Shown one piece after another: positions 40,424-58,179 of a stretch of 64,000 nucleotides of DNA. This stretch comes from an uncultured Nitrospiraceae bacterium (lineage in GTDB: Bacteria > Nitrospirota > Nitrospiria > Nitrospirales > Nitrospiraceae), in contig CAVPLT010000007.1 in assembly GCA_963706325.1 (NCBI GenBank), positions 320,001 through 384,000 of the forward strand. Direction: 5' to 3'. Numbering within the stretch: position 1 is the first letter of the stretch; every line of letters begins with the position of its first letter. The notes below the pieces were generated by a model. It did not search any database and was not told where the DNA came from. It was given only the letters and a program-made list of their open reading frames with translations. The translations under genes were made by a program, and so were the position numbers.

Positions 40424-41098
40424 ATGAACACATCGCCTGCGTTTGATCTCGAACATTTGTTTCAGGAACATCAGCGTGATCTCTTGGCAATGCTTCGCCG
40501 CATGGTGGGGTGCCGGGAGACCGCGGCCGATCTGGCACAGGAAGCGTACATTCGTCTTGCCGACGTCCCGACCTCGCATATTATTACATCTCCTCGCGCG
40601 TTTTTATTTCGCACCGCCACCAATCTCGCGCTGGATCATTTCAGAAAGCAAAAATTTCGGGGCCAACGGCAAGCGTCGCTCGAGGAAGCCGAGAACGTAC
40701 CGACCGATGCGCGAGCCATAGACGCTCAGGTTCATGATAAGCAATTGGTCGCGACGCTCGAGCGGGCGCTGGCCACCTTGTCAGACCGCACTCGTGCGAT
40801 CTTTGCCATGCGGCGAGTATACGGCTATTCCTATCAGGAGATCGCCGCGCATTGGCAGATGTCGGAACGGGCGGTCGAAAAACATCTCGTGAAAGCCATG
40901 ACTCGCTGCCAAGAGGCGTTGATGGATAAGGATGTGCCCGCTACAGATAGGAGGGGAAAAGAGGAAGCTGACACGTCAATCGGAAGAGGATATAGTGCCT
41001 CGATTGCTTCTCTTGTTCATCTTTCCGAGTCACGATGCGACCTGAAGACAATCGTTCGCAGCTGCCATCCGCAAACTACAATCCGGAGCGACACCTAA
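40424..41098 (+). CDS. FecI-like ECF sigma factor
   Basis: AADLAQEAYIRL, PRAFLFRTATNLALDHFR, SYQEIA...VEKHL. Lies upstream of FecR. Confidence 0.9.
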   Translation: MNTSPAFDLEHLFQEHQRDLLAMLRRMVGCRETAADLAQEAYIRLADVPTSHIITSPRAFLFRTATNLALDHFRKQKFRGQRQASLEEAENVPTDARAIDAQVHDKQLVATLERALATLSDRTRAIFAMRRVYGYSYQEIAAHWQMSERAVEKHLVKAMTRCQEALMDKDVPATDRRGKEEADTSIGRGYSASIASLVHLSESRCDLKTIVRSCHPQTTIRSDT

Positions 41099-42033
41099 TT
41101 AAGGAAGCGACGGCGTGGTTTGTACGCCAGGCGGCCGGCGACTTTACCCCTGTCGAACGGCGCCAGTTAGAGTCCTGGTGCGCACAAAGCCCGGCGCATG
41201 CGCGCGCCTATCACAACGTGTCTGAGTTGTGGAACGCGCCTGAAATGCACAGGGCGGCGGCGCAGAGCTCAGCCGGCTGTCCTGTCCCTCAGGTGCGTGA
41301 GCAGACGCGTCATGCCTGGCGCTTCGCGGGAACTGCAGCCGCGGCGGTACTCTTGATGGTCAGCCTGGCGCTGTGGAGCGAAGGCCTACTCATCTGGCTG
41401 AAGGCAGACTATTCCACGGGAGTCGGGGAGCAGCGCGTCGTGACGCTGCAGGATCAGTCGGTCGTGACCTTAAACACGGGCACGTCCATTGCCGTGCGAT
41501 ATGCCTCCGATCGGCGATACATAGAATTGCTGCGAGGAGAGGCCTCCTTCGCTGTGCAGCCCAATCCTGCACGGCCGTTCACCGTTGAAAGCCACGGCGT
41601 CTCTACGACGGCCATCGGCACTCGATTTGTAGTCAAACATCGCAGCGCAGATATCCAAGTCACGGTGCTGAGCGGGACGGTCCTTGTTGACCATGGCAGG
41701 AAGGCACCAGATGACGCCATACGTTTGGCCGCCGGCGATCAAGTCTCCGTCGGGCAGCATGGGGCAGGATCAATTGATCGAGTTGATACAACGGCCATCG
41801 CCGCATGGATGCAGGGTCGTTTGGTTTTCGTCCGAACTCCACTCGCCGACGTCGTTCAGGATCTTGCCCGGTACCATCGAGGCTATATTATTATCTGGAA
41901 TCCAGCGCTCCAGTCCCTTCCGGTGACGGGTATCTATAACCTATCGGATCCCTCCCATATCCTCACGGCTCTGGCCGATACCTTGCCGATCCATATGGTT
42001 CGTCTCACAGACCACCTCGTCGTCATTCGCTAA
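41035..42033 (+). CDS. FecR-family anti-sigma/signal transducer
   Basis: EATAWFVR...W...PAHARAY, a TM segment, TGVGEQR.VTLQD.S.VTLNT, GEASF, GRLVF. Confidence 0.93.
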   Translation: MRPEDNRSQLPSANYNPERHLIKEATAWFVRQAAGDFTPVERRQLESWCAQSPAHARAYHNVSELWNAPEMHRAAAQSSAGCPVPQVREQTRHAWRFAGTAAAAVLLMVSLALWSEGLLIWLKADYSTGVGEQRVVTLQDQSVVTLNTGTSIAVRYASDRRYIELLRGEASFAVQPNPARPFTVESHGVSTTAIGTRFVVKHRSADIQVTVLSGTVLVDHGRKAPDDAIRLAAGDQVSVGQHGAGSIDRVDTTAIAAWMQGRLVFVRTPLADVVQDLARYHRGYIIIWNPALQSLPVTGIYNLSDPSHILTALADTLPIHMVRLTDHLVVIR

Positions 42034-42185
42034 GACCTCCTTCTTCGCAACCGTATTCCGTCAATGTGCTCGCCTTTGTTCCCTGGAGGGGGGGATTTTT
42101 CTTTCCCATACGTCCAGGCACAGGAAGGACACAACGATCGAGGGGCCGTGATATCGATCCTCGAAGTTTACTGACGGAGGTTTGA

Positions 42186-44684
42186 ATGAACAACAGTGCC
42201 TGTTACCGAAAAGAACTCGTGACCTCACCGAACCAAGCGCGCCGAATCTCCTCCACAATCGGCCTGCGGAAGCCGTGTCTTCTTGTGACGCTGGTCGTGA
42301 CCCTTGCGGGCCTCAATCACGCGTTTGCGCAAAGCGACGCCATCACCGCCGAAGCGGACAGCCGGCCTAAGAATCAATATCAGATTTCCCAGCAACCGTT
42401 AAACACGGCCTTGCGAGACTTTGCATTGGCCTCTGGGTTACAGGTCAGTTTTCCCGACGACATCGCCCGAGGACGGACGTCGCGTGAAGTCGCCGGATCC
42501 TATACGCCCGAAGAAGCCCTGTCGGAGTTACTTGCCGGAACAGGACTCTCGTTTCGCTTTACCAGCGCCGACACGGTGACCTTGGAGCGGGCAGGTCCAT
42601 CCATCGTCCCTCTCGCGCCGGCCGCAACAAACCAACGCTCTGCCGGTTCGGCCGATAATGGACAGGGCGGAACGCCGACCAGCGTCAAGCCGATCGTGGT
42701 GCCTGAAATCGTGGTGAAGGACGTGCATGAACGGAACGAGCCGGACCAGGAGGCGGTGAAGGAAATAGCTGGAGCGGTCAATGTCGTCACCCGCGAGGAA
42801 ATCCAGCGAGCCAGGCCAAAAAACGCAGACGAAATGTTGCGACGCGTTCCCGGTGTCAATGTGCTGGATGAATATGGCCAAGGATTAAGACCGAACATTG
42901 GAATACGGGGCATGGATCCAAGGCGGAGCAGAAATATTCTCCTGCTGGTAGATGACATTCCCATTCAACCGGCCCTCTTTGGAGATGCCTCGACCTACTA
43001 CATGGTGCCGATCGAACGCATCGATCATATTGAGGTGATCAAGGGGGGAGCTACTGTCCAATATTCGCCCAATACTCAAGGCGGCATGATCAATTTCATT
43101 CAGAAAAGGATTCCCACGACACCGACCTTCTCCACGACGAACACGTTCGGCAGTTTCAATCTCTTTCAATCCGACACACAGTACGGCGGCTACTTCGGAA
43201 ATTTCGGAGCGCAATTGGGATATATCCGGCGCCAGTCGGACGGGTTCAGAGACCGGAGTAAATCGCAGTTGGACGATTTCACCATGCGGTTCGAAGCGAA
43301 TCCCGATGATAGAACCCGCCTTACGACCAATATCTCTTGGTACGACGAAACGACGCAGACGCCGGGAAGTCTCACGCCTACTCAATATCGAAACGATCGC
43401 ACCCTCGCGGGAAAGCCACTGGATGAGTTTAAGGGGCAACGAGGGGCGATCGATGTGACGGCGAGCCGGGAGATCGACGCGCGCAATACGGCCAAAGTGA
43501 TCGTGTACGGCAATGTGTTTGAACGGAACTGGTATATCCAGGATCAAGCCGCTAATGGCACGTTGCTTTCAACCAGCACGAACTTCTTGCGCAAGTTCAA
43601 TGTATTCGGCGTTATGCCGCAACATCAGTTCAATTTTTCCCTCTTTGGCTTGGATCAAAAAGTCACGTCCGGCGTTCGATATCACGCGGAACGACTCACC
43701 GATATCACAGGGATCGGCACGGCCGGCTCGAAAATCAGCCGTACCACCAACAATGCCGATCTGGAATCGGTGGCCTATGCCGCCTATACGGAAACAGCCA
43801 TCCGATTGACCCAGGCCCTCACCATTTCACCTGGCATACGGTGGGAGCAGGTCAACCAAAGCCGTGAAGCGATGAATGCCATCCCGCCGGCGACGCTGCC
43901 CAATTTCAAAAGCAATAACACCACTCAAGGCCTGATCTATGGGACGGGAGTGAAGTATCAACTCACCCCGGACAGCATGTTGTTCGGCCACGTTCATACG
44001 ACATTTCGGCCACCCACCTTTGCCAATGCGGTCGATCCGACCAGCGGAACCACACAAGACCTTGAGGCCGAGCGCGGGTTGAGTTCGGATATCGGGGCCC
44101 GGTCCACCATCGTGCCCGGTGTGAGCGCGGAAATTGCCGTGTTTCGAACCGACTTCAGCAATCAGATCGTTCAGCAAGGAAGCCAGTTCGTGAATGCGGG
44201 GAAGACGCTGCAGCAAGGAATCGAAAGCAGCGTCAGTCTCGATTGGGGCGAACTCGTACGTCCGCTGCAAGGCTTCGTCACCAGGGCGAATGTCACCCTC
44301 TTGCGGCCCAAGTCGCTCTTTGGCGCCACGAACGGGAAGGATCTTCCCTATGCCCCGCGCATGACGTTCTATGGATTAGTGGGCTATTACCACCCCACCG
44401 GTGCCTCGATTGAGGCGGATGCCACGTACGTCGCCCAGCAATTTACTGATGGCGCGAATACCCAGACGGAGAATGCTCTCGGGACGACGGGAGCCATTCC
44501 CTCCTATACCATTTGGAATTTACGGCTCAACTATGCGCCGCCCAAGGCTCGCTGGGCGGTTTTCGCAGGCGTGCGCAACCTCACCGATGAATCATTCATT
44601 GCGCAACGCACAACCGGAAGTTTCATCGGTATTCAGCCCGGCGAAATCAGGAATTTTTACGGTGGCTTCTCATGGAAGTTTTAG
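42186..44684 (+). CDS. TonB-dependent receptor with N-terminal STN signalling domain (FecA-like)
   Basis: QQPLNTALRDFA...ALSELLAGTGL (STN), plug motifs (LRRVPGV, IGIRG, IEVIKG), C-terminal SWKF. Confidence 0.95.
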   Translation: MNNSACYRKELVTSPNQARRISSTIGLRKPCLLVTLVVTLAGLNHAFAQSDAITAEADSRPKNQYQISQQPLNTALRDFALASGLQVSFPDDIARGRTSREVAGSYTPEEALSELLAGTGLSFRFTSADTVTLERAGPSIVPLAPAATNQRSAGSADNGQGGTPTSVKPIVVPEIVVKDVHERNEPDQEAVKEIAGAVNVVTREEIQRARPKNADEMLRRVPGVNVLDEYGQGLRPNIGIRGMDPRRSRNILLLVDDIPIQPALFGDASTYYMVPIERIDHIEVIKGGATVQYSPNTQGGMINFIQKRIPTTPTFSTTNTFGSFNLFQSDTQYGGYFGNFGAQLGYIRRQSDGFRDRSKSQLDDFTMRFEANPDDRTRLTTNISWYDETTQTPGSLTPTQYRNDRTLAGKPLDEFKGQRGAIDVTASREIDARNTAKVIVYGNVFERNWYIQDQAANGTLLSTSTNFLRKFNVFGVMPQHQFNFSLFGLDQKVTSGVRYHAERLTDITGIGTAGSKISRTTNNADLESVAYAAYTETAIRLTQALTISPGIRWEQVNQSREAMNAIPPATLPNFKSNNTTQGLIYGTGVKYQLTPDSMLFGHVHTTFRPPTFANAVDPTSGTTQDLEAERGLSSDIGARSTIVPGVSAEIAVFRTDFSNQIVQQGSQFVNAGKTLQQGIESSVSLDWGELVRPLQGFVTRANVTLLRPKSLFGATNGKDLPYAPRMTFYGLVGYYHPTGASIEADATYVAQQFTDGANTQTENALGTTGAIPSYTIWNLRLNYAPPKARWAVFAGVRNLTDESFIAQRTTGSFIGIQPGEIRNFYGGFSWKF

Positions 44685-44760
44685 CCATGAGCCAGTCGCC
44701 GACTTTCGATGACCTTTATGGGTGCGACTGATTTCTGACACCCACTAGTAAAGGATACCC

Positions 44761-45462
44761 ATGTTGGAAGCCATCAACCTCACCAAACGATTCGGCGCCA
44801 CCGTGGCGCTCGACAGCTTGAATCTGGCGGTACAGCCGGGAGATATTTATTGCCTCCTCGGCGCCAACGGCGCGGGCAAGACCACGACCATCAATTTGTT
44901 TCTCGGTTTTATCGAGCCGAGCAGCGGTGAAGCGCGGGTCAACGGCGTGGATGTCCAACGCGGACCCGACGCCACCAAGGGCGCCATCGCCTATATACCG
45001 GAGACGGTCGCGCTGTATCCGCATCTGACCGGAATGGAAAATCTCGAGTATTTCGCCGGCCTGGCGGGCCACGAGGCTTCGCGCGAGCAGTTCGGGAGCG
45101 CACTGAGCGAGGCCGGTCTTAAAACCGAGGCACACTCGCGCAAGGTCGCCGGCTACTCGAAGGGGATGAGACAAAAGGTCGTCATCGCGCTCGCCATCGT
45201 CCGGGGCGCCAGGGCGATGCTACTCGATGAGCCGACCTCGGGCCTCGATCCGCACGCGGCTAACGATTTCGGCGAGCTGTTGCGGCGCATGACTGCGTCA
45301 GGGGTCGCGATACTGATGGCCACGCACGATTTATTTCGCGCCAAGGACATCGCGACCACCATCGGCATCATGAAGCATGGCGTCCTCGGCGTGAATTTGT
45401 CCGCGTCCGAAGTCAGCCACACCGACTTAGAGCACATCTATCTGAAGTACATGAGGGACTGA
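44761..45462 (+). CDS. ABC transporter ATP-binding protein
   Basis: Walker A GANGAGKTT, signature YSKGMRQK, Walker B LLDEP, ATHD. Confidence 0.95.
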   Translation: MLEAINLTKRFGATVALDSLNLAVQPGDIYCLLGANGAGKTTTINLFLGFIEPSSGEARVNGVDVQRGPDATKGAIAYIPETVALYPHLTGMENLEYFAGLAGHEASREQFGSALSEAGLKTEAHSRKVAGYSKGMRQKVVIALAIVRGARAMLLDEPTSGLDPHAANDFGELLRRMTASGVAILMATHDLFRAKDIATTIGIMKHGVLGVNLSASEVSHTDLEHIYLKYMRD

Positions 45463-45464
45463 CC

Positions 45465-46964
45465 ATGCAGGCACACACCGACGCCCAAGCCGTTCACGCG
45501 TCCGCCGGCCCAAATCGGAATGAGCGCAGCTTGTTCGGTCCGGCCTGGCGCGTGGCACACAAGGAGGTGGCCGATCTCTACAGCGACGGCCGCGTCTTAT
45601 GGGCCATGGCAGCCGTGGCTCTGCTGATCATGATCTCGGTCGCGTTGTCCTGGCAGGACTTCCGTGCGCGCGAGGCGGCGCGCACGCAGGCAGATACGGC
45701 AGTGCGTCATCAGTGGGAGAATCAAGGCTCCAAAAATCCTCACAGCGCGGCGCATTTCGGCCAGTACGCCTTCACGCTCGAATCGGTCCCGGCGGCGATC
45801 GATCCGGGCACGCTTGCCCATACCGGAAGCGCGGTCTGGCTTGAGCCGCACCGCAGGAACCTGTTCGGTTTTCATCCTGCCGAGGACCAAACCGCGGCGG
45901 TTCGCTATGGGCCGCTGACGCCGGCATTGCTGCTGCAAGTCGTCGTGCCATTGCTGATCGTGTCCTTCTGCTTTGCGTCGGTCGCCGGTGAACGCGAGGC
46001 GGGGACGCTGCGGCTCGTCTTGAGTCTGGGACTCACACGCGGTCAACTGTTTCTGGGTAAAGCCCTCGGCGTCGCTCTCGCAGGCGCGCCGCTTGCCGCG
46101 CTGCTCTTTGCGCCGGTGGCAGTGCTGGGGCTGATCCAGATGGGGCAGGGCGCCGCCGGTACCGACCAGGTCGCGCGGCTGCTGCTGATGGCGGTCGTCT
46201 ATTGCGCCTACTGGAGCGTGTGGGTGCTCATCGGTCTGGGGGTATCAAGCCGTGCAGCCACGGCACAGCGCGCGCTCATTGTCCTGTTGGCGCTGTGGGC
46301 GCTCGCCACGCTGCTGGCTCCCCGGGTCGGCTCCTTCCTGTCTGAACAGATCGCCAAGCCACCCTCCACGGAGGCATTTTTCGATGGCATACAGAGCGAT
46401 CTGGCTCACGGCCTTGACGGCAAGTCTCCCGCCGAAATGCGTTACCAGGAACTCGTCGAACAGACGTTGAAGGAGTACAACGTGAAGAGTCTGCAGGAGT
46501 TGCCGGTTGGCTTCGGCGGCCTGCGGCGGCGCTCACAAGACGCCTATTCCGAACGCGTGCATGATAAACACTTCGACGCGGTCCACGACACCTGGCGACG
46601 CCAGGCGAGGCTGCACATTCTTGTCTCGGCCGTAAGTCCCCTCATTCCGGCGCAGGCCTTGTCCCAGGGCCTCGCAGGCACAGATGTCGAGCATCACATA
46701 CATTTTTCTCAGGCCGCCGAGCGCTATCGCCGCTACTTCGTCGACTTCACGACCGACGCCCTGACCGCAGGCGAACAGGGAACGGAAAAACGAATGACTG
46801 CCGGTAACGAGATGTGGCAATCGATCAAGGCATTCGAATACCGGCAGCCGACGGCGGATGAGGCATTGCGCGGGCAGTGGCCGGGCCTGCTGGTTCTTGC
46901 GGCATGGCTGATGGCAAGCGCCTGGTACGCTTACCGATCATTCCGGCGACTGAATTTTGAGTGA
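45465..46964 (+). CDS. ABC-2 type permease, DUF3526 family
   Basis: QWENQGSKNPHSAAHFG, VWLEPH, GEREAGTLR, multiple TM segments. Confidence 0.85.
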   Translation: MQAHTDAQAVHASAGPNRNERSLFGPAWRVAHKEVADLYSDGRVLWAMAAVALLIMISVALSWQDFRAREAARTQADTAVRHQWENQGSKNPHSAAHFGQYAFTLESVPAAIDPGTLAHTGSAVWLEPHRRNLFGFHPAEDQTAAVRYGPLTPALLLQVVVPLLIVSFCFASVAGEREAGTLRLVLSLGLTRGQLFLGKALGVALAGAPLAALLFAPVAVLGLIQMGQGAAGTDQVARLLLMAVVYCAYWSVWVLIGLGVSSRAATAQRALIVLLALWALATLLAPRVGSFLSEQIAKPPSTEAFFDGIQSDLAHGLDGKSPAEMRYQELVEQTLKEYNVKSLQELPVGFGGLRRRSQDAYSERVHDKHFDAVHDTWRRQARLHILVSAVSPLIPAQALSQGLAGTDVEHHIHFSQAAERYRRYFVDFTTDALTAGEQGTEKRMTAGNEMWQSIKAFEYRQPTADEALRGQWPGLLVLAAWLMASAWYAYRSFRRLNFE

Positions 46965-46971
46965 GGACGAC

Positions 46972-49224
46972 ATGATCCGATTACTGCATCTCGAATGGCA
47001 GAAGGATACACGCGACCGGTCCTTATGGATCCCGATCGCCTTCCTGTGCCTGTTGCTGGTCGCGGCGGCGATCAACGGCGCCGGTGACGTGACCGGAGCC
47101 AGGGACTCCATAGCGGCTTCGAATGATTACGAGTCGGCGCGCATGGCTGAACTCCAGCACAGCGCCGGGGAAGTCGCGCGGGGGCATCAACCCGTTCAGT
47201 TCGCGCTGGACGGCTCGAATCCTGCCCGCGTGGGTGGAGGAGACGGTGCGCGTCGAGCCTGGTTGCCTCCGGCGGATTTCGCCTCGTTCGCGGCCGGTTA
47301 TCTGGGCGCGCTGCCGCAATCGCACACGATCACGACTTGGTCGCGCTACGCGCGCACCGACGGCTATGACCTCAGGAGCCCTGCCAACCACGCGAGCGGG
47401 CGCTTCGATGTCGGCTTCGTCTGCGTGCTGCTCCTGCCGCTCTTCGCGATCGCACTGGGTTACAACGTCTTGTCGGCGGACCGCGAGTCGGGCACGTTGC
47501 GCTTGGTGAGCGCGCAGTCGGTGTCGCTGCCTCGCCTGATCGCCGTGCGCCTCGGATTGCGTCTCGCACTGCTCATGGCCCCCATCGCCATCGTCAGCGC
47601 CGGTCTTTACCTATGGACGGCGTCGGAGATCACGGTAGAAGGAGTATCGAAATGGCTGTTCCTGCTCGGCGCGGTGAGCTGTTATGTCGCGTTCTGGCTG
47701 GCGTTGTGCGGGGTCCTCAACGTGTCAGGGCGCAGTTCATCATTTAATGCGATGACCGGAGTATCTCTCTACCTTGCGTTCACCATCCTGCTGCCCACCG
47801 CCATCCAGGTTGCCGCGACGAAAGCGTTCCCGCCGCCTGCTCGCCTGTCGCTCATTCCCACTATGCGGACGATCACCAGCGAGATCGAAAGCAGCGAGAA
47901 ATCCAAAGCCCTGGTCGAACGCTATTACCGCGACCATCCCGAGGTCGTACCGGCGGCGGACTCGCCGAATAAGATGGAGCCGCGGACCAAGCTGTTTCCC
48001 AAAGCGCTGGAGTTCGACCGCCGCCTGGTCCCGATCATCAAGGAGCAAGAGGCGGCGTCCCAGGCCCAGTCCGATTTTGCACGCCGGCTCTCCATCCTGT
48101 CGCCGTCGTTCGCGTTGCAACTGATTCTCGAACAGTGGGCGGGCAACGACTTGGAGCGCAACAGGGCGTTTGTCCGGCAGGTCGATGCGTATGAACAGGC
48201 GTGGCGCGAGTTCTTCGGACCCAAGATCATGGGGCTCTCCAGGCTTGCCCCGGACGATTATCAGCGCCTCCCGACCTTTCAGTTTCGCGAGGAGCCCGCG
48301 TCGAGCTTCTGGGGGCACGCATTCCTGCCGCTGGGTTCTCTGTTCGCGGCCGGCAGTGTCGCGGTGGGCATGCTGGGATTAGCCCTTCCCAAGTCGTCGT
48401 TACGCCGGCGCAAGAAGCAGGTCACCCGGGGCATAGATGAGCGCTGGGCCCGCAAGGCGCACCGCCGGATAGGCATTTTTGCCCTCGGGTTTTTGTTGCT
48501 CTCCTTAAGCACGGGACTGTTGTGGGCCAATGCAAAATTCCTGTATTGGGACGAACGTTATAAGGAGCGGGTGCGACCGGTTGCCGGTCCGCCGCTGGAG
48601 GCGGCAGGAGTTTCGCTTCAGGAGGTGATGGACCGGAGCAAAGCCGCGGTTGAAGGTCCGGCAACCGTGACGCAGGCCACCCTTCGTTCTGATTTTGGCC
48701 GGCTTCTCTATGACGTCAAACTGCGCGCCGGAGGAAAAGCCAGCACATTTCTCTATGATGCGGCAACCGGAGAGCTTCTTTCCCCGATTTCCCCGGAGCT
48801 GGCCCAAGACATCGCCAGGCAATACGTAAGCGAGAACGCCGAGATCACCGCCGTGGCCACGGAACAGTACACCCCTCGAAAAAAACACAAGGCACAAGCT
48901 GCCGTTCGAGTGGCCTTCAATGATACGAATCGAACCGAAATCGTGCTTGATCACCAGACCGGCGAGATTCTCGAAGACGAAGGCCGTTGGCGCAAGGTGC
49001 ACTTCGCAGTCATGCAATTGCATCAGCTGAACTTCTTTGGATTTGAAAAAACGCTGCTCAATATTCCAGGCGTCCCGCTGCTCCTGATGGGCTTCTCAGG
49101 ATTGGCGTTGTGGGGGCTTCAGCGCGCTCGGGCGAGACGCGCCAAAACCGCCGCATTCACAGCGCACGATGTGCTGTCTCCTCCCGATTCGAGAGGGGAA
49201 CCGGAGCATACCAACCGTGGGTGA
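46972..49224 (+). CDS. DUF3526-type ABC permease fused to a PepSY-associated TM/PepSY module
   Basis: Permease part (FDVGFV...DRESGTLR, LPTFQFRE) to about 48400, then WARKAHRRIG...TGL, PepSY-like YDAATGELL and LDHQTGEIL, and MQLHQL in a single frame. GAGGA RBS before ATG 46972. Confidence 0.82.
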   Translation: MIRLLHLEWQKDTRDRSLWIPIAFLCLLLVAAAINGAGDVTGARDSIAASNDYESARMAELQHSAGEVARGHQPVQFALDGSNPARVGGGDGARRAWLPPADFASFAAGYLGALPQSHTITTWSRYARTDGYDLRSPANHASGRFDVGFVCVLLLPLFAIALGYNVLSADRESGTLRLVSAQSVSLPRLIAVRLGLRLALLMAPIAIVSAGLYLWTASEITVEGVSKWLFLLGAVSCYVAFWLALCGVLNVSGRSSSFNAMTGVSLYLAFTILLPTAIQVAATKAFPPPARLSLIPTMRTITSEIESSEKSKALVERYYRDHPEVVPAADSPNKMEPRTKLFPKALEFDRRLVPIIKEQEAASQAQSDFARRLSILSPSFALQLILEQWAGNDLERNRAFVRQVDAYEQAWREFFGPKIMGLSRLAPDDYQRLPTFQFREEPASSFWGHAFLPLGSLFAAGSVAVGMLGLALPKSSLRRRKKQVTRGIDERWARKAHRRIGIFALGFLLLSLSTGLLWANAKFLYWDERYKERVRPVAGPPLEAAGVSLQEVMDRSKAAVEGPATVTQATLRSDFGRLLYDVKLRAGGKASTFLYDAATGELLSPISPELAQDIARQYVSENAEITAVATEQYTPRKKHKAQAAVRVAFNDTNRTEIVLDHQTGEILEDEGRWRKVHFAVMQLHQLNFFGFEKTLLNIPGVPLLLMGFSGLALWGLQRARARRAKTAAFTAHDVLSPPDSRGEPEHTNRG

Positions 49225-49295: not shown

Positions 49296-51335
49296 ATGGC
49301 ACTGACGATTCGTACCATCAAAGGCCGCATTGTGCTCGCGATCGTGCTGGTGGGCTGTGTCCCGCTGCTGATGGGCCTCGTCCTCGCCTACATGTCGGGA
49401 ATGCAATCTTTGCGGGACCTCATCGGCGGCAACCTGCAGGCGGTTGCGGTTCAGGCTGCCGACCGGGTGACCATGCTGGTCCAGAGCGAAATTCAAGCGG
49501 CCCGTTTATTGGGATCGGCGCCTCTTCGCGTGCGTCAGCCGGTCGAGGCGGCCAATCGTGCCTATCCTCCGGATCCTGCGCAGGCGGACCTCATCATTCA
49601 GGAACGCACTCAAATCTGGGAGAAGGGGAAGGAGGCGGCGGCCCGATTGCTGGATGGAGGCCTCTCGCGCTTTCTCCTCGACACGAAGGTTCGAAGCGGG
49701 GACAAGGTCGTGGGCCTCTTGATCGTCGATCAACATGGATCGTTGGTCGCTGCCAGTTCGGAACCTGATCATTACTCCTTCGGCGGTGAATCGTGGTGGA
49801 AGGCGATCCGTTCCGGCGGCACCGACCACGTATATGTCAGTGAGTTGATTCCGACCAAGGAAGGCTCCTTCCGGACGCCGGAGGAGACGATCGACATCGC
49901 CGTGCCGATTCTGGACGACCGTCACCACACTGTTATCGGAGCCGTCAAGGCTTCCTACCGGTTCGACACTCTCCTCGGTATGATCAACCAAATACGGATC
50001 GGGCAAACCGGCCATGCCATGCTCTTCAATGCCGCCGGGGAGCCTTTAGTCTGTCCGATCCTTCCTCGGCAAGCGCATCGTATACCCAGCCAACTAATGG
50101 CCATGATTGTCTCCTCCGAGCCAGGCTGGGGTATCGCTGATGACGATGGACATGGCGGCGCCGACACAGTAGTTGCGTATGCGCCTGTGACCGGTCTCAC
50201 CTTGCCGGACAACACCTGGCATATTTTCGTCAGACAACAGCCGGTGGAAAGTTATGCTCCGATTCGAGACCAGCTCAGGAATCTGGCGGTGATCGGTCTT
50301 GTCATGGTGGGTCTGTTGTGGGCAATCGGGCGCTACGTCGCGACGCGAATCGCCCGTCCGATTCAAGTTTTGAAGACCGGGGTCGAGGCGATCAGCCGAG
50401 GCACCTACGATGGTCCGCTTGATCTCAAAACCGGAGATGAGTTTGAGGAGCTGGCAGTGGCCGTGCATCGCATGGCCGATAAGTTGCAGGCGTCGCGAGC
50501 GGAGTTGGAGTCTCTCAATGCGGAGCTGACGCATCGGGTGGAAGAGAAGACCGCAGAGATCACTCGGCAGATGCGGAAGCTGGAATTATCTGAACGGTTG
50601 GCGACGCTGGGGAAGGTGGCCAGTGGGATCGCCCACGAAATAAACAATCCCCTCGGCATTATTCTCAACCGAATCGAATGTATGGAGGCCGATGCGGCAC
50701 AGGCCGAGCTGACGGATGAAGTCGGGCGGGATTTAGTCACCATCCGCAGGCAGGCGGAACGGATTTCCCGCGTCACGCGCAGCATCCTCACCTTTTCTCG
50801 CGGCACGGTCTCCACATTGAAGCCGCTCGACCTTAATTGTGTTGCCCGCACCTGCGTGGCGATGGCTGGTGAACGGGTCGCAGGGCGTTCCGTGCGGATC
50901 GATGCGCAACTAGCATCACAATTATCCCCGGTCATGGGAGATCGAGACCGACTCGAAACGGTGCTGCTGAATCTCATCAACAATGCCATCGATGCGGTGA
51001 CGGGACATGTCGAGCAGGGGCTCGTTACGCTGCGCACGACACGGACGATCCTTAACGGCGATGAGTGGGTGCAGATCAGCCTCTCGGATAATGGACCCGG
51101 CATTCCGTCCGCTATCCTCGACCGCATTTTCGATCCATTTTTTACTACGAAGCCGACAGGTCAAGGGACCGGGCTGGGATTGTTCCTCAGTTATGGAATC
51201 GTCTCGGACCATCGCGGTCGCATCGAAGCGCGAAGCAGCGTCGCCGGGGCGACCTTCGAGATCTATCTGCCTACGGTGGGTCTCGGGACATCGCTTCAGG
51301 AAGGAACACCATGGGGATTGCAGGAAAAATCCTGA
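49296..51335 (+). CDS. Sensor histidine kinase (Cache-like periplasmic domain, HAMP, HisKA, HATPase)
   Basis: Two TM segments, HAMP (GDEFEEL), AHEINNPL, NLINNAIDA, DNGPG, FDPFFTTK...GTGLGL. Confidence 0.95.
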   Translation: MALTIRTIKGRIVLAIVLVGCVPLLMGLVLAYMSGMQSLRDLIGGNLQAVAVQAADRVTMLVQSEIQAARLLGSAPLRVRQPVEAANRAYPPDPAQADLIIQERTQIWEKGKEAAARLLDGGLSRFLLDTKVRSGDKVVGLLIVDQHGSLVAASSEPDHYSFGGESWWKAIRSGGTDHVYVSELIPTKEGSFRTPEETIDIAVPILDDRHHTVIGAVKASYRFDTLLGMINQIRIGQTGHAMLFNAAGEPLVCPILPRQAHRIPSQLMAMIVSSEPGWGIADDDGHGGADTVVAYAPVTGLTLPDNTWHIFVRQQPVESYAPIRDQLRNLAVIGLVMVGLLWAIGRYVATRIARPIQVLKTGVEAISRGTYDGPLDLKTGDEFEELAVAVHRMADKLQASRAELESLNAELTHRVEEKTAEITRQMRKLELSERLATLGKVASGIAHEINNPLGIILNRIECMEADAAQAELTDEVGRDLVTIRRQAERISRVTRSILTFSRGTVSTLKPLDLNCVARTCVAMAGERVAGRSVRIDAQLASQLSPVMGDRDRLETVLLNLINNAIDAVTGHVEQGLVTLRTTRTILNGDEWVQISLSDNGPGIPSAILDRIFDPFFTTKPTGQGTGLGLFLSYGIVSDHRGRIEARSSVAGATFEIYLPTVGLGTSLQEGTPWGLQEKS

Positions 51336-52729
51336 TCGTCGACGACGAGCAGGACGCATTGGACAATTGCCGCCGCATCTTGAGCCGGGTGCCGTATCAG
51401 TGTGTCACGGAGTCCAATTCCGCCCGCGCGCTCGACATCATCCAGCGGGAGCGGCCGGGCCTGATCTTGACCGATCTGCGTATGCCGACCCTGGACGGGA
51501 TCGAGGTGTTGACTGCCGCCAAGCGGCTCGACCCCTCCGTGAAGGTCGTGTTGCTGACCGCCCATGCCAGCGTGCAGACTGCCGTGACGTCCATGCGCTA
51601 CGGCGCGTTCGATTATATTACGAAGCCGTTCGCCAGCGCCGAACTTGTGCAGGTTGCCCGCCGCGCATTCGGTGAGGATGGCGCATTACCGTCGGCCGGA
51701 CCCGGAAAGACCGACGATGGCGCGCGTCTCGACCGGGCGCAGCCGGGAAGGCGTGCCAGCTTTGCGCGTGTGATCGGTGAAAGTCCTGCGATGCAAGCGG
51801 TATTCAACCTGATTGAAAAGGTCGCTCCTACCCATTCCAACGTGTTGGTCTATGGAGAGAGCGGCACGGGAAAAGAGTTGGTTGCCCATGCCATTCATGA
51901 TGCGAGTCTCCGGGCAGACCGTCCGTTCGTTCCCGTGGATTGTGTTTCCCTTCCCGACACGTTGCTTGAATCCGAGTTATTCGGCCATGAGAAAGGCGCG
52001 TTTACGGGCGCGCATATTTCCAAACCGGGACTTTTCGAGATCGCTTCAGGGGGCACGATATTTCTCGATGAAGTCAGCGGGATGAGCCAAACGTTGCAGT
52101 CGCGATTGTTACGGGTCTTACAGGAACGGCAGATGCGCCGAGTCGGCGGCATCCGGTTCATGAGCGTGGATGTGCGCGTGATCGCGGCCTCTAACCAGGA
52201 GCTCGAGGCGGCCTGTCGCCGCGGAGAGTTTCGCGAGGATCTGTATTACCGCTTGAATGTCATCCCTATCGCGTTACCGCCTTTGCGAAGCAGAGAAGGA
52301 GATATTCCACTGTTAGCCCGAGAATTCATTCAGCGGTTTATGAGGCAGCAAGGGCCCGGCGCGGCTTTCGTGCCGGACCTGAGCGCTTCCGCGGCGGAGC
52401 TGTTGTGCGGATACTCGTGGCCGGGTAATGTGCGTGAATTACAGAACGTGATTGAGCGGGCAGCGGTGTTAGCCGATGGGCCTATCATTATGAGCGCGCA
52501 CCTACCGGAACGTCTGCGGGGGCCTGAGAGTGACGACTCCGGGTCCCATGAGACGGCCTCATTCAAGCACGCCAAACAGGCGGCCGTCAGCACGTGGGAA
52601 CGAAGTTTCCTCATAGAACTGTTGAAGCGACATGATGGCCATATGGGGCGCGCTGCACGCGAGTCCGGTGTCGACCGTAAGACGATCGAACGAATGGTAA
52701 AGAAGCATGGCCTGCGGGCCTTGTTCTGA
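51311..52729 (+). CDS. Sigma54-dependent response regulator (NtrC/AtoC/ZraR family)
   Basis: Receiver (ILIVDDE, TDLRMP), GESGTGKE, intact GAFTGA, WPGNVRELQN, Fis-type HTH. Confidence 0.96.
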   Translation: MGIAGKILIVDDEQDALDNCRRILSRVPYQCVTESNSARALDIIQRERPGLILTDLRMPTLDGIEVLTAAKRLDPSVKVVLLTAHASVQTAVTSMRYGAFDYITKPFASAELVQVARRAFGEDGALPSAGPGKTDDGARLDRAQPGRRASFARVIGESPAMQAVFNLIEKVAPTHSNVLVYGESGTGKELVAHAIHDASLRADRPFVPVDCVSLPDTLLESELFGHEKGAFTGAHISKPGLFEIASGGTIFLDEVSGMSQTLQSRLLRVLQERQMRRVGGIRFMSVDVRVIAASNQELEAACRRGEFREDLYYRLNVIPIALPPLRSREGDIPLLAREFIQRFMRQQGPGAAFVPDLSASAAELLCGYSWPGNVRELQNVIERAAVLADGPIIMSAHLPERLRGPESDDSGSHETASFKHAKQAAVSTWERSFLIELLKRHDGHMGRAARESGVDRKTIERMVKKHGLRALF

Positions 52730-52804: not shown

Positions 52805-52824
52805 ATGGGACAGCCATGTCCCAT
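52805..52824. promoter_or_regulatory. Palindromic putative enhancer site 1
   Basis: ATGGGACA-GCCA-TGTCCCAT. Confidence 0.6.
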
Positions 52825-52888: not shown

Positions 52889-52924
52889 CGATACAAATGG
52901 GGCGTGTGCGCCCCATTTGTATCG
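52889..52924. promoter_or_regulatory. Palindromic putative enhancer site 2 (or hairpin)
   Basis: CGATACAAATGGGGCG-TGTG-CGCCCCATTTGTATCG. The core ATGGGGCG-N4-CGCCCCAT matches site 1. Confidence 0.6.
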
Positions 52925-53008
52925 ACTGGGAGTGTATTGTCAAAAATAATGGCTGCATTTGCCGACTTTCTCCTGAGGCGAAATGAGGAACAAGAGTTGC
53001 TCTAGTCT

Positions 53009-53023: not shown

Positions 53024-53063
53024 GTCCAGTGATGACGCGGCTGTATGTCATCCATCGAGTTCA

Positions 53064-53256
53064 AGGACGTGGAGAAGGAAGGACCGGCCTCCTGACTTGT
53101 CCACTCCATGAGGGTGCAGGTCTTCGGACCTGCACCGTAAAAACAGTGCAGTTGTTGTGTGTGAGGACGTGGAGAAGGAAGGACCGGCCTCCTGACTTTT
53201 CCAGTCCACGATGGTGCAGGCTCCTTGCGGGGCCTGCACCGAACATCTGAGTGCAG
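53064..53256 (+). ncRNA. Candidate tandem structured cis-regulatory RNA (two units of about 90 nt, 100-bp period) in the oxidase leader
   Basis: Identical 35-mer at 53064-53098 and 53164-53198. Each is followed by a GGTGCAGG...CCTGCACC hairpin with a different loop, and then by AGTGCAG. Confidence 0.5.
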
Positions 53257-53295
53257 CCATAGGGCTGATCATGGATTCAAGAGGAGGTAGGTGTA

Positions 53296-56200
53296 ATGAG
53301 ATCGGCACCAAGGAGATTTAGGGTTCACAGTCGGCGGAAGTCGCCGGTTGCCTGGAAGTTGCTTATGGGAGCACTGCTTCCAACCCTGTGTATCGGGATG
53401 GGTTCCGTTGTATTTGCTGGCGAGACCGACGGGCATGCTATGGCGCACAGTCAGCCGGCGTGGGCTGAGCAACTCAAAGGGCAGACCATCGTCGAGGATG
53501 CACAGGAAGGGCATGTCGAGCGGACGGCCATGATGGAGCGGCAACATCAGCGCATCATGGAGAAGATCAACGACCAGCTCACGCATGATTCCAACAATCA
53601 GCGCACGGGCGGCATGTACAACAACGTGAACATGTTGCACCAGTACGGAGCCGGGGCCCAAGACATGTTGTTGATGTCGAATAGCGGCGCAGAGCCGGTG
53701 TCGTCGTTGGGTGGGCGCTGTCCAGCCAGTGCGCCGGTGCGAAGCTACGACGTCTCGGCCATCAATGTTGAGATTACTTTGAATATGTGGCTGGATTACT
53801 ATCCGGGCTATATGTACGCCTTGACCGAATCCCTTGAGAAGGTCCGCGCTGAAGAGACCAAGAACCGTGAAGCGCGAGACAAAGAAGGCTACGATCCAGG
53901 CGCCGTGACGAACGGCGTGCAGAATCAGTGGATTCAACCATTGGTGCTGCGCGGTAACCAGGGCGATTGCGTGAAGCTCACGCTCCGCAACCAGCTGGAG
54001 GGTGACGAAGAAGTCAGTTTGAACATCCACGGATCCAGCATGATCATCTCGTCCACGGGTCAGCCTGCGACGACCACGAATCCCGACAGCATCGCGCCGA
54101 AGGGAAAGGCCGTGGAGATGGAATGGTATATTCCGCCCACGCAGCAGGAAGGCAGCCGCCAATTCCATTCCTACAGCAACGATCGTGAGTTGACCGTGAT
54201 GGGATTGTTCGGTTCGTTCGTGATCGAGCCGAGGGGGTCGGAATATCTGGAGCCGTTGGGAACCGGCGATCCGATGCCGGCCAAGAGTGGATGGCAGGCC
54301 ATCATCAAGAACGGCGCCGGTCCGGACTTTCGTGAATTCGTCCTCTTTTATCATGAGGTCGGAGATGAAGCGTTTCGTCCCTTGAACAAAAAGGGCGACT
54401 TCATTCCGCAACGGGATCCGCTGACCGACGTCTATCGGCCGGTGGCGCGCGCGCTGAATTATCGCAGCGAGCCGTTCGGCGTGGACAACATGCAGACCCA
54501 GCATGAATATTTCGGGTTCGAGGATGAATCGATGGCCTACAGCGCCTATACGTTCGGCGATCCCGCCACGACGATTCCTCGCAGCTATCTGGGTGACCCG
54601 GCAAAGTTCCGCTTGGTGCACGGTGGTTCCGAAGTGTTCCACTCTCACCATCCGCACGGTGGATCCATCCGTTGGCCGCGGAGCCCGCGGGCGATCGATG
54701 AAATGCCGCTCTGGCATGCGGCGAAGAACGGCCCCGTGAAGTACCCGGTCATCCGGATGAAGTCCGATCGTGTCGACGTGGAAGTGATCGGCCCATCAGA
54801 GACCATGGACTTGGAGACGGAGTGCGGCTCCGGACTCTGTCAGCAATTGGCCGGAGATTTTCTGTTCCATTGCCACGTCGCCCATCACTACATCGCGGGA
54901 ATGTGGGGCTATTGGCGTGTCTACAACACCATTCAGCAAGGGGCGAATCACAATGACGTGATGCCGGACTTGTTGGAGTTGCCGGACCGCAAGGGCCGCA
55001 TCAAGACAGGGGTGACGTCCGATGAGCTGATCGGCAAGACCGTCGATTGGTTCGGGAAGCAGTTCAAGATCATTGAGAAAGGCAAGACCGATTGGAAGGC
55101 GGACCCCGCTATCGTGACGCTGAAAGATTGGGTCGACATGCAGTTCCCACCCCAAGGGCTGCCTGGCCATAAGAAAGATGAGCGGGACCAGACGCGTTCC
55201 TATGATGCCAGCGTGTTGAACTGGGGCTGGCAGGGTACACGCGCGGTGACCGAGCCTGAGAACACCGTGCCGAATCCACGATATCAGTCGGCCCATCCCG
55301 GCGAGCGTCTGCCGATCGTGTTCGAGCCGTTGACCGGCAAGGTGTCGTGGCCTCATCTGAAGCCACATTTCGGGCGCCGCGTGCCCTTTTCAAAGAACCA
55401 CAATCCATCTCCCTGGCTGGAGATGATCCACTTGGAGGAAGATGGATTGCCGAGTTCTTACCCGGCTAAGCCGGGTGAGAACGGGCGTTGGAGCCTGTGT
55501 CCTGAAAATGCCGGATCCAAGAAATACAACGTGCACTTCATCCATACGCCGATGAAGTTGGCCGATAAGCAGGGCGACACGCCTGCGATCGAAGATCCGG
55601 GTGGACTGATCTATGTCTTGCACGAAGAGGAAGCCGCCATCAGGAAGAACAACGACCTGAAGTATCCGTTGGTCGTGCGGTCCAACATCTATGACTGCGT
55701 CGACTGGATGTTGACCAGTGAATGGGAAGACGACGATCACTCGAACTTCCACTCGTCGAAGGTCAACACCCATTGGCACTTCCTGCAGTTCGACAATCAA
55801 TCGTCGGACGGGGTGATCACCGGGTTCTCGAACGAACAATCGGTGCGTCCGTTCACGATGCTCGAGAAGAAAACGGACAAGGGATTGCCGTTGCCCTTGA
55901 ACACCACCTTCACGAAGGCGGGAAAAAAGGGCGATCGAGTCATCACCGTCAAGAATGCCGCGCAGTACCATCCTGAGGTGGAAATCCTGATCGGCGCGGA
56001 TAATGTCGGCGGCAATGAGATCGGACGGGTCAAGTCGATCAAGGGAAATGAAATCACCCTTCTTCGTCCCTTGAAGCACGATCATCCCGTGAAGGATATC
56101 GTGACGGTCGAGTTCGTCAGACAGCGATTCTGGGTCGATGCCGATGTGGGGACGGTGTTCTGGCACGACCATGCGCTGGGTCGGATCACGTGGGGTCACG

Positions 56201-58179
56201 GCGGCTTCGGCACGATGATCGTCGAGCCGGTCGGGTCCACGTACCACAATCCGAAGACCGGGCAACCGATCCGAAGTGGTCCGCTGGCGGACATTCGGAC
56301 CGTCGAACCGGTGGGCTATGGGGTGAACGGCAGTTTCCGTGAGCTCATGGTCCAGTTGAATGACAGCGTGCCGCATACGGTTAATATCGTGACGGCAGGC
56401 AATCCGCCTGGCCAGCCGATTGAAATCGGGCTTGAGGCGGGCAAGACCGTCTCTTTCCCTATGCCTGAGCACATTCCGATGACTCCGATGGCATTTCTGA
56501 ACGGCGGCACGCATACGACCGGAGGCAGCCTGAATTTCCGAGCCGAGCCGATTATCGGCCGTCTCAAGGCGAACCCGGACTCGTCGTTGATCTTCAGTAG
56601 CGCCGCGCATGGCGATCCTTACACGCCGCTGTTGCGCGCATACCTTGGCGATACGATCGTCTTCAGGTTGCTCCAAACTATGACCAACGAGACAATGGTT
56701 TGGACGCTGTCCGGTCATACCTTTTTGACCGAGCGCTACGCAGGTGACGCCAACCGGAAGAACTCCATCCATATCGGAATCGCCGAGCGCTACGATTTGG
56801 TGGTGCCGCAAGCCGGCGGGCCGAGGCTGCAAGCGGGCGACTACATTCATTTTAACGGTCGCGCGTCGAAGTTCTCTGAAGGGGCCTGGGGCATTGTGCG
56901 GGTTCTGGATAAAGATGTGCCGGATCTACAGAAATTACCATCCGGCTACAGCGGCCGAAATGTCATTCCGAAGTCACCGGAAGTGTGTCCATCTGATGCG
57001 CCGGTGAAGACATTCAACGTCGTGTCGATCGACTTCCCGTCGATGAAGTTGAACCCGAGGGCGCCGGACGCCATCGAGGTCGATTTCGAGCGGACGATTC
57101 AAATGGTCAATCCAGACGCCAAGATTTATACCTTGGAGGAGGACGCGGCCTCAGTGGCATCCGGTGTACAGCCGATGCCGCTGACGATTCGGGCCAATGT
57201 GGGAGACTGCCTTAAGATCAGGTTGACCAATAAGATGAAGGAGGGCCGCGCCTCTTTCTCAGCCATCGGGCTGGCGTTCGATCCGAAGGATTCTCTCGGA
57301 GCGAACGTCGGCAATAATCCCGGCGATCAAACGATCGCGCCGGGCGAAAGCCGCGTCTATACGTACTATGCCGATCCATTCCTGGGAGAGACGGCTTCTC
57401 TGGTGTGGGATTGGGGTAACGTCATGACCAATCCGCGCAACGGACTGTTCGGCGGGATCGTGATCGGTCCGAAGGGAGCGACCTATCGCGACCCGAAGAC
57501 CGGTGCGGATATTTCCAACAAGAACAGCTGGATCGCTGACGTCATCGTCAACCGAACGATTCAGGGCTACGAAAATCGTAAGAATTACCGCGATGTGGCA
57601 TTGTTCTTCCAGGATGAAGACAACATCATCGGGACGAGCTTCATGCCCTATGTGCAGAACACGGCAGGATTGACGGCCGTCAATTATCGGTCGGAACCCT
57701 ATAAGTTCCGTGAAGAATCCGGTTGCACCCTCGGCAGGGTATTCCAGCCCTGTTCGGTCGATAAGCCGGAAAGCATCGCTACGCCACTCATCGAGGCGCA
57801 TGCGGGAGATCCCGTACGCATCCATGTCTTCGGCGCGAGCAATGAACAGAACGGCATGTTCAGCGTGGAGAAACATGAATGGCCGATCGAGCCCTTCATG
57901 CCCGGCGCCGACCAGATCAGTGTCGTGGAATTCTCGGGATCCGAGACGTTGGACGCCTTCATCCCAGCGGCCGGCGGAAGCTTCCGCTTGCCGGGTGATT
58001 ACGTCTGGAGCAACCAGCGATTGCCGTATGCGCAATCCGGCCAGTGGGGCCTGCTCAAGGTCCTTCCGTCTGAGGATCAACGGATCCTTCCGTTGACCCA
58101 GCATGGGTCATCGGCAAAGCGAGCGGAGTCAGAGCAGGGAGAGGGCAGGGTGTCTCGCACCTCCACCTCCATGCAGTAG
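53296..58179 (+). CDS. Large secreted multicopper oxidase, MnxG-like
   Basis: Signal region. Cu motifs HSHHPHG, FHCHVAHHYIAGM (T1), THWHF and FWHDH, plus degenerate cupredoxin repeats (PLVLRGNQGDCV, PLTIRANVGDC). GAGGAGG RBS. Confidence 0.88.
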   Translation: MRSAPRRFRVHSRRKSPVAWKLLMGALLPTLCIGMGSVVFAGETDGHAMAHSQPAWAEQLKGQTIVEDAQEGHVERTAMMERQHQRIMEKINDQLTHDSNNQRTGGMYNNVNMLHQYGAGAQDMLLMSNSGAEPVSSLGGRCPASAPVRSYDVSAINVEITLNMWLDYYPGYMYALTESLEKVRAEETKNREARDKEGYDPGAVTNGVQNQWIQPLVLRGNQGDCVKLTLRNQLEGDEEVSLNIHGSSMIISSTGQPATTTNPDSIAPKGKAVEMEWYIPPTQQEGSRQFHSYSNDRELTVMGLFGSFVIEPRGSEYLEPLGTGDPMPAKSGWQAIIKNGAGPDFREFVLFYHEVGDEAFRPLNKKGDFIPQRDPLTDVYRPVARALNYRSEPFGVDNMQTQHEYFGFEDESMAYSAYTFGDPATTIPRSYLGDPAKFRLVHGGSEVFHSHHPHGGSIRWPRSPRAIDEMPLWHAAKNGPVKYPVIRMKSDRVDVEVIGPSETMDLETECGSGLCQQLAGDFLFHCHVAHHYIAGMWGYWRVYNTIQQGANHNDVMPDLLELPDRKGRIKTGVTSDELIGKTVDWFGKQFKIIEKGKTDWKADPAIVTLKDWVDMQFPPQGLPGHKKDERDQTRSYDASVLNWGWQGTRAVTEPENTVPNPRYQSAHPGERLPIVFEPLTGKVSWPHLKPHFGRRVPFSKNHNPSPWLEMIHLEEDGLPSSYPAKPGENGRWSLCPENAGSKKYNVHFIHTPMKLADKQGDTPAIEDPGGLIYVLHEEEAAIRKNNDLKYPLVVRSNIYDCVDWMLTSEWEDDDHSNFHSSKVNTHWHFLQFDNQSSDGVITGFSNEQSVRPFTMLEKKTDKGLPLPLNTTFTKAGKKGDRVITVKNAAQYHPEVEILIGADNVGGNEIGRVKSIKGNEITLLRPLKHDHPVKDIVTVEFVRQRFWVDADVGTVFWHDHALGRITWGHGGFGTMIVEPVGSTYHNPKTGQPIRSGPLADIRTVEPVGYGVNGSFRELMVQLNDSVPHTVNIVTAGNPPGQPIEIGLEAGKTVSFPMPEHIPMTPMAFLNGGTHTTGGSLNFRAEPIIGRLKANPDSSLIFSSAAHGDPYTPLLRAYLGDTIVFRLLQTMTNETMVWTLSGHTFLTERYAGDANRKNSIHIGIAERYDLVVPQAGGPRLQAGDYIHFNGRASKFSEGAWGIVRVLDKDVPDLQKLPSGYSGRNVIPKSPEVCPSDAPVKTFNVVSIDFPSMKLNPRAPDAIEVDFERTIQMVNPDAKIYTLEEDAASVASGVQPMPLTIRANVGDCLKIRLTNKMKEGRASFSAIGLAFDPKDSLGANVGNNPGDQTIAPGESRVYTYYADPFLGETASLVWDWGNVMTNPRNGLFGGIVIGPKGATYRDPKTGADISNKNSWIADVIVNRTIQGYENRKNYRDVALFFQDEDNIIGTSFMPYVQNTAGLTAVNYRSEPYKFREESGCTLGRVFQPCSVDKPESIATPLIEAHAGDPVRIHVFGASNEQNGMFSVEKHEWPIEPFMPGADQISVVEFSGSETLDAFIPAAGGSFRLPGDYVWSNQRLPYAQSGQWGLLKVLPSEDQRILPLTQHGSSAKRAESEQGEGRVSRTSTSMQ

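Follow-up and report, generated by a model that had tools for sequence, protein, structure and literature searches.

Relation to known regulatory RNAs

The s-SodF RNA of Streptomyces coelicolor is derived from an mRNA and carries a perfect, conserved complement of the 5' end and ribosome-binding site of sodN, which encodes an equivalent enzyme; it enforces inverse expression and was discovered by the same kind of complementarity search as the element described here (PMC3919588). With a length of about 90 nt, s-SodF arises by processing of a 3' UTR and matches the mRNA of a non-homologous isoenzyme over 19 nt (PMC3919588), whereas the Nitrospirales element lies at the 5' end, has a true paralog as its predicted target, precedes up to three oxidase paralogs per genome, and is known here from sequence. 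Two further systems are described in a second source. In Listeria, SreA and SreB are structured 5' leaders that act in trans on the 5' region of another mRNA, prfA; SreA is a SAM riboswitch freed by termination, whereas the Nitrospirales element has no known aptamer or terminator and would target its own gene family (PMC8383071). In Staphylococcus aureus, a C-rich hairpin loop of RNAIII contacts the G-rich ribosome-binding-site loop of rot, and two contacts improve repression – an advantage that tandem copies of an element may also offer. RNAIII stands alone and has many targets (PMC8383071), whereas the hairpin of the Nitrospirales is part of a leader and has a single conserved target.

By analogy, the Nitrospirales element would work like s-SodF on sodN, SreA on prfA, and RNAIII on rot, but it belongs to none of these families. 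It is a new RNA family and probably a further form of mRNA-borne antisense control, aimed from a 5' leader at a paralog. The two copies in the stretch of DNA analyzed here (the window, 64,000 nucleotides from an uncultured Nitrospiraceae bacterium) also resemble the P2 kink-turn hairpin of the SAM-I riboswitch through their GA-RGG-ACYGG-CCY-NNN-GA pattern. However, the Nitrospirales element lacks the other SAM-I helices and junctions, has no Rfam match, and does not conserve its kink-turn bases.

The Nitrospirales are the main nitrite oxidisers and comammox bacteria. Our literature search, which covered sources other than subscription papers, found no description of the element and none of a base-pairing regulatory RNA in this order; Nitrospira is absent from the main texts of the structured-RNA surveys that were searched, and the available text of an N. 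marina preprint and of a 2025 Nitrospirales comparison does not mention multicopper oxidases. If true, the reading proposed below would provide the Nitrospirales with a base-pairing regulatory RNA that has a predicted target and natural compensatory mutants. Duplicated genes would be made mutually exclusive – the inducible paralog's leader carrying the housekeeping paralog's off-switch – and MnxG-like oxidases would be flagged as a swapped, condition-specific module, which offers a handle on their function.

The giant MnxG-like oxidases in question are encoded in 145 of the 151 genomes of the order and are among the top 60 transcripts in N. moscoviensis. Their closest solved relative is the Bacillus MnxG manganese oxidase (PDB 9bxa; E 2.4e-80). 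One study describes the oxidase as conserved, with a speculative function; its Nitrospina and Nitrospira homologs are proposed there to protect against oxidative stress (PMC3578206).

Organization of the oxidase locus

The genome of the window (G000) encodes three oxidase paralogs. Paralog B, in the window, is preceded by two elements; C follows a sigma54 box and one element; and A follows a sigma70-type promoter and has no element. The two elements of B form tandem units that sit between a gene for an NtrC-like sigma54 activator and the gene for a 1627-aa multicopper oxidase. In window positions, the locus is organized as follows:

49296..51335, + strand: dCache-HAMP histidine kinase, probable partner of the NtrC-like regulator
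51311..52729, + strand: NtrC-like sigma54 activator with receiver, AAA+, and Fis HTH domains; judging from its position, it probably activates the oxidase promoter
52806..52823, no strand: predicted activator binding site 1, palindrome TGGGRCR-N4-YGYCCCA; similar palindromes lie upstream of orthologs
52898..52915, no strand: predicted activator binding site 2, within a 16-nt inverted repeat (52889-52924)
52987..53000, + strand: sigma54 -24/-12 box GGAAC-N5-TTGC, also present in orthologs; predicted transcription start at ~53012
53037..53046, + strand: 5' strand of closing stem P1, able to pair with AGUGCAG of either unit
53064..53151, + strand: unit 1, with arm P2 (53064-53108), hairpin P3 (53113-53136), and a duplicated P1 3' strand (53145-53151)
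53081..53093, + strand: antisense core 1, GGA/UCC stem and loop CCGGCC; 13/13 complementary to G000:C7:617821-617833, the paralog A ribosome-binding site, which lies outside the window
53164..53258, + strand: unit 2, with arm P2, hairpin P3 (53213-53240), and the P1 3' strand (53250-53258)
53181..53193, + strand: antisense core 2, same sequence as core 1
53281..53292, + strand: Shine-Dalgarno region of paralog B itself, an imperfect cis match to the core
53296..58179, + strand: paralog B, a giant multicopper oxidase of the MnxG-like kind (1627 aa); identity is 75% with A and 63% with C

An earlier note on this DNA had placed the leader under sigma54 control, and a conserved box does precede the units, though at the corrected position listed above. 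Of 102 element-bearing leaders, 88 have a sigma54-type box (GG-N10-GC) at most 150 nt before the core. In 47 of these 88 it lies 35-38 nt from the core, which puts P1 at the predicted 5' end.

The multicopper-oxidase ligand set of the window gene (53296-58179) and its paralogs is only partly intact, and the first ligand motif (HIHG, NIHG, and FIQA in A, B, and C, respectively) is the only clear ligand difference. A metal swap did not emerge as the reason for a switch between A, B, and C, the copper-ligand motifs being nearly the same in all three.

Directly upstream of the two-component pair (40424-49224), the window encodes an ECF sigma factor, a FecR, an STN-type TonB receptor, an ABC ATPase, and two DUF3526 permeases, one of them fused to PepSY. 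This gene set is a probable metal-chelate uptake unit.

A conserved branched RNA in oxidase leaders

The exact 35-mer that the earlier note had reported in two units 100 bp apart is present at 53064 and 53164, within a longer tandem repeat of 57 nt at 93% identity. Each unit also folds largely as described there, into an arm tipped by a GGA/UCC stem with loop CCGGCC, followed by a GGUGCAGG...CCUGCACC hairpin. Compared with shuffled sequences, the fold energies of the units have z-scores of -4.9 and -4.0 and that of the whole leader has one of -5.7. The global minimum-energy fold of the leader pairs unit 1 with unit 2; we did not adopt this fold as the functional one, since the local fold is just 4 kcal/mol weaker and agrees with single-unit homologs.

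Across related loci, the element is a branched RNA that consists of closing stem P1, arm P2, and hairpin P3. In 34 copies from outside lineage I, P1 is 99% paired and has double changes at 7 of 11 pairs; none of 500 shuffles matched this, and slid controls dropped to 34-55% pairing. Double changes occur at 6 of 20 pairs in 22 lineage-I copies. Covariation in P2 is less clean, and the alignment was fitted to the model. As the earlier note had anticipated, no Rfam family reached its gathering score in the window, where only chance matches were found at E<=10; a search of Rfam 15 with four homologous loci gave only chance matches at E<=5.

We searched genomes with a covariance model of 46 copies, chosen by the core motif described below. 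It matched in 42 of 44 and in 42 of 80 chosen Nitrospirales genomes and in none of 71 genomes from other families of the class, outside the order. In the set of 44, 67 of the 72 element matches precede an oxidase match by no more than 700 nt; of the remaining five, three fall at contig ends and two are weak matches. In G000, the whole leader has no second copy by BLAST, and the model found one further element, before paralog C. The element is thus conserved upstream of oxidase paralogs across the Nitrospirales, and its stems covary.

The duplication of the unit is lineage-specific and dispensable. Lineage-I orthologs mostly have one unit and three have none; two units occur in G000, G005, G115, L039, and L041, and the first unit of L037 is decayed. 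This speaks against the idea, raised in the earlier note, that tandemness itself is a functional feature. Other proposals made there fared similarly. Kink-turn geometry fits the two copies in the window, but tandem G.A pairs are present in just 35 of 97 family copies. AGUGCAG, proposed to compete for the hairpin arm in a fold switch, follows P3 in 6 of 30 lineage-I hairpins (two unrelated matches dropped), all from the tandem clade, where the motif (at 53145 and 53250) is the duplicated 3' strand of P1. The suggested short upstream reading frame (ATG 53045 to TGA 53095) exists, but only 27 of 97 copies have an in-frame stop after the core, and the commonest variants are not synonymous. The suggested CsrA sites are not borne out: GGA is paired in 97-98 of 98 copies, and csrA, found in 8 of 12 genomes and present in G000, was not found in the complete genome G087, which has three element copies. 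Because G.A pairs, AGTGCAG, and stops are patchy and orthologs are mostly single-unit, the kink-turn, fold switch, reading frame, and tandemness are, judged across the family, not what selection keeps. The proposal of an undescribed cis-regulatory RNA holds insofar as this is a conserved, covarying structured RNA in a sigma54-driven leader; its invariant part points instead to pairing between RNAs, chiefly in trans, and not to the sensing of a ligand in cis.

Some occurrences of the core lie outside this family. The 12-mer occurs a fourth time in G000, at C7:453266. We set this occurrence aside, as the model does not match it and a hand estimate from base composition predicts one or two copies by chance. 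A pattern scan of metagenomes returned at least 118 matches, mostly chance; of the 80 loci fetched, two were strong, both before the oxidase. An unrelated repeat family of metagenome contigs (L426, L456, L459, L460, L470, L472, L475, L485, L486, L491, L492, and L498) shares the 12-mer and a constant 3' flank and is not next to an oxidase.

The invariant core matches the translation start of a paralog

Within the upstream regions of 80 related loci, the only constant part is the 12-nt core GGACCGGCCTCC, around which the stems vary. In the window, this core (GGACCGGCCUCC) is the hairpin tip of each unit – the 3-bp GGA/UCC stem and CCGGCC loop that end arm P2. It is the exact complement of the Shine-Dalgarno sequence and spacer of paralog A, whose start is preceded by an exact 13-nt complement of the core plus one base. 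Among 9,982 candidate Shine-Dalgarno-led starts in G000, paralog A ranks first for pairing with the core. When the fetched loci are grouped by protein trees, those of A type and the others with a sigma70-type promoter have no element and keep the target site. The complementarity of this mRNA segment to the translation start of another mRNA is thus conserved.

The target spacer is itself almost unchanged. The last 7 nt before the A start are identical in 25 of 30 genomes, with a pairwise identity of 0.95, compared with 0.38 and 0.36 for the groES and groEL spacers and 0.38 and 0.44 for the flanks of A itself. The site can also fold, into a GGA/UCC hairpin with loop GGCCGG that mirrors the core. 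Its lower stem covaries with codon 2 in many loci, not all (129 of 272 cells versus 97 +/- 8 in shuffles, kinship being ignored). Four oxidase genes from two outgroup genomes have neither target site nor element.

The core could also find partners closer by. Of 100 element-bearing loci, 53 keep GGAGGYYR, an 8-bp match to the core, at the start of the gene itself, and in several lineage-II B genes a near-perfect target site lies within the first codons. For some members of the family, pairing in cis or across paralogs is therefore likely; where the paralog's own start keeps GGAGGCCG, the core probably pairs in cis as well.

Several loci depart from the common arrangement. Perfect or wobble copies of the target lie in the first codons of lineage-II B genes at L540/L056 (NITMOv2_4529), L060, L074, L079, L092, L147, and L148. 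NITMOv2_4529, from N. moscoviensis, is not itself preceded by an element, and levels of its operon are low in a culture where the element-bearing paralog is high; first-codon sites of this type may serve as a second target in trans. A search ahead of B loci that lack an element (nirK operons) found none. At L571 (G045:C4:160700-161700), the paralog-A leader has a second, upstream copy of the target without a start codon. A B-type coding sequence lies behind a sigma70-type promoter at L070, L073, L075-L078, L080, L085-L091, L196, L197, and L321; the start sites of these genes still pair at 11-12 of 12 positions, through G.U pairs, an apparent case of a coding region replaced and a regulatory site kept. 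The element-less oxidase is a distant D-type paralog at L189, L206, L207, L572, L573, L577, L579, and L581. D-type paralogs have no target beyond the Shine-Dalgarno sequence, yet the element persists in their genomes.

Matched changes in core and target

In two clades, a change in the core is matched by one in the target. In one (family f3; G026, G044, and G007), the core reads GGACUGGCC and the target GGCCAGUCC (also written GGACTGGCC and GGCCAGTCC). In the other (G121, G057, and G039), the sequence of one core is GGACCGACC and that of the target is GGUCGGUCC (also written GGTCGGTCC). These compensatory changes are two events, each reachable via a G.U intermediate, the genomes that share a change being kin and not independent. 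C-to-T is the commonest mutation. The changes tolerated are strand-specific, C-to-U on each RNA, as G.U pairing predicts.

Most cores (94 of 111) are canonical, and 16 of the 17 variants keep pairing by G.U or compensation; the single non-pairing variant is in G037, from a genus where the element is mostly lost. Of 100 genomes with a fetched sigma70-type locus and a resolved start, 64 have the element, and 57 of these show pairing at 12 of 12 positions; among the 36 that lack it, 10 do. This count follows the manual removal of five two-mismatch matches that lay outside an arm and the manual addition of two copies, and we set aside a Fisher test (p 6e-10) because the genomes are related.

Predicted energies favor the paralog as partner. 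All 67 leader copies examined pair better in trans (mean -28.2) than with their own start region (-17.0). In the window, the core duplex is worth -30.9 kcal/mol with paralog A versus -16.7 kcal/mol with its own site, and in co-folding either unit opens onto A (ddG about -8) and not onto the own site of B or C (about 0).

There are exceptions to the concordance of core and target. In the complete genome G123, a target change is uncompensated in its only element, and G097 has an uncompensated mismatch in the Shine-Dalgarno sequence. At least eight genomes (G009, G017, and G042, the last complete, and G030, G063, G066, G073, and G113), which lie outside the 64-genome count, keep a canonical core, and no oxidase start with a full target was found in them; their element-less paralog matches at only 8-9 of 12 positions. 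Conversely, five near-complete g12 genomes have a perfect target, and no element was found with a model that was trained on the canonical core and could miss a much-changed copy. A search for hidden elements in g12, g21, and f3 genomes with a perfect target likewise found none.

The elements of G044 and G007 lie behind a sigma54 box and ahead of a gene that does not encode an oxidase and has no matching site itself. These genes (L301:1185-1868 and L302:1319-2047, minus strand) encode secreted proteins of about 220-240 aa, judged by eye to be probable outer-membrane beta-barrels. The outer-membrane-like protein has no homolog in G000.

Probable antisense repression and alternative readings

The reading that we favor, and consider fairly probable, is that a leader-borne antisense RNA represses translation of housekeeping paralog A in trans. 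The two-component system would fire the sigma54 promoter, and the leader of the element-bearing oxidase would be made. Its CCGGCC loop would kiss the GGCCGG loop at the paralog A start, and the contact would extend into a 12-13-bp duplex over the Shine-Dalgarno sequence and spacer; the extended duplex is favored because kissing alone would let the invariant core stem covary. Housekeeping oxidase A would then be turned down while the inducible oxidase is made. Pairing would need no Hfq, which was found in none of five genomes. Either the full mRNA or a leader released from it could be the acting RNA. In the window's leader, the units are not followed by a terminator-like site, so a released small RNA is not indicated there; short U-rich tails follow P1 in other paralogs. 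The second unit in the window would only add a second binding arm.

A broader version, which we regard as possible but doubtful, would be an mRNA-to-mRNA switchboard in which intact leaders and start hairpins kiss, so that a single duplex shuts off the housekeeping copy while freeing the inducible copy's own start. Such a system would involve no released small RNA and no Hfq, be order-wide, and be portable to other genes, such as that behind the f3 outer-membrane leader.

Alternatively, the element could act mainly in cis, with the core pairing to its own oxidase start (GGAGGCCG or the first codons) and holding translation off until displaced, and the perfect A site could be an ancestral start hairpin kept for its own local fold. 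The own-start matches in 53 of 100 element-bearing loci fit this reading, as do the genomes that retain the element where an A-type target was not found and the ability of the A site to form its own hairpin, the GGA...TCC ends of which persist in most element-less g12 genomes. However, a hairpin kept for its local fold leaves the invariance of the loop unexplained, and likewise the loop changes that are matched in a gene elsewhere; in f3 and at several loci of B and D type, the match at the own site hardly extends past the Shine-Dalgarno sequence; and the cis match in the window is weak, its arm staying closed in co-folding. We consider it unlikely that cis control is the main role.

Antisense repression of A could also run in reverse or both ways, such that free paralog-A mRNA binds the core, frees the start of the sigma54 paralog, and is silenced in the same act. 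The same complementarity underlies this reading, which further draws on the average advantage of about 11 kcal/mol of the trans over the cis duplex and on both partners being hairpins with complementary loops. It is inapplicable, though, where the element-bearing gene's own site has no match (f3 and lineage-II B), and direction is not given by sequence; we judge it quite improbable.

The branched architecture, the covarying stems, and the position at the 5' end of genes of one family would suit a metal or metabolite riboswitch, with the invariant tip in a binding pocket and the anti-Shine-Dalgarno segment as expression platform, and the element before the outer-membrane protein gene of f3 would suit it too. 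But the invariant columns are the core and a few stem positions, with no conserved ligand-pocket bases outside the platform; the bases of the 12-nt core are all explained by antisense pairing, junction and internal-loop bases vary, and Rfam match, conserved alternative fold, and terminator are all lacking, which makes a riboswitch very unlikely.

That the 12-mer is a transcription-factor DNA site, a CsrA or kink-turn protein site, or part of an upstream reading frame is hardly credible and largely refuted: double-stranded DNA does carry the same sequence in opposite orientation, csrA is present in G000, and the window copies have tandem GA and an in-frame stop, but the tolerated changes are strand-specific, the flanking stems covary as RNA, and across the family GGA is nearly always paired, tandem GA and stops are patchy, and csrA was not found in G087.

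Partial core matches occur at three other starts in G000, all on the minus strand: C4:331897, for a 181-aa secreted protein; C1:63203, for the gene right after paralog C; and C1:283221, for a small cupredoxin-looking protein, the site of which resembles that of paralog B. These are possible further targets.

Expression of the paralogs

In N. moscoviensis, the sole element precedes NITMOv2_3987, of C type; NITMOv2_3660 is A, and NITMOv2_4529 is of B type, with a target-like site in its first codons. In a chemostat transcriptome, RPKM values are 4464 for C, 1922 for A, and 185 for B, so that C and A mRNAs are abundant together (PMC6606698), which counts against repression of A but agrees with the reverse or mutual switch. 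In a batch-culture proteome, A is 13.4-fold and B 3.8-fold lower under nitrite starvation, and C is 1.9-fold higher; the change in C is below the authors' 2-fold cut and rests on 1 versus 3-8 spectra. Products of the genes after A fall 1.3- and 8-fold (PMC9381531). The direction of these changes fits repression of A and is suggestive, although the cultures differ. The 13-fold loss of A within 48 h of starvation probably needs proteolysis. The same proteome has about 1 spectrum for the element-bearing oxidase versus 11-16 for the product of the next gene (PMC9381531), which favors pairing in cis.

RNA libraries, available as contigs with no DNA control, include one contig that spans the element and runs into the coding region of a homologous locus. 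Promoter bins are covered in none of four RNA runs, where missing cover is no evidence because only contigs are available. At L119:3286-3468, RNA-contig depth is far above its surroundings in all four runs, with many variants; this is possibly a tRNA or other stable RNA.
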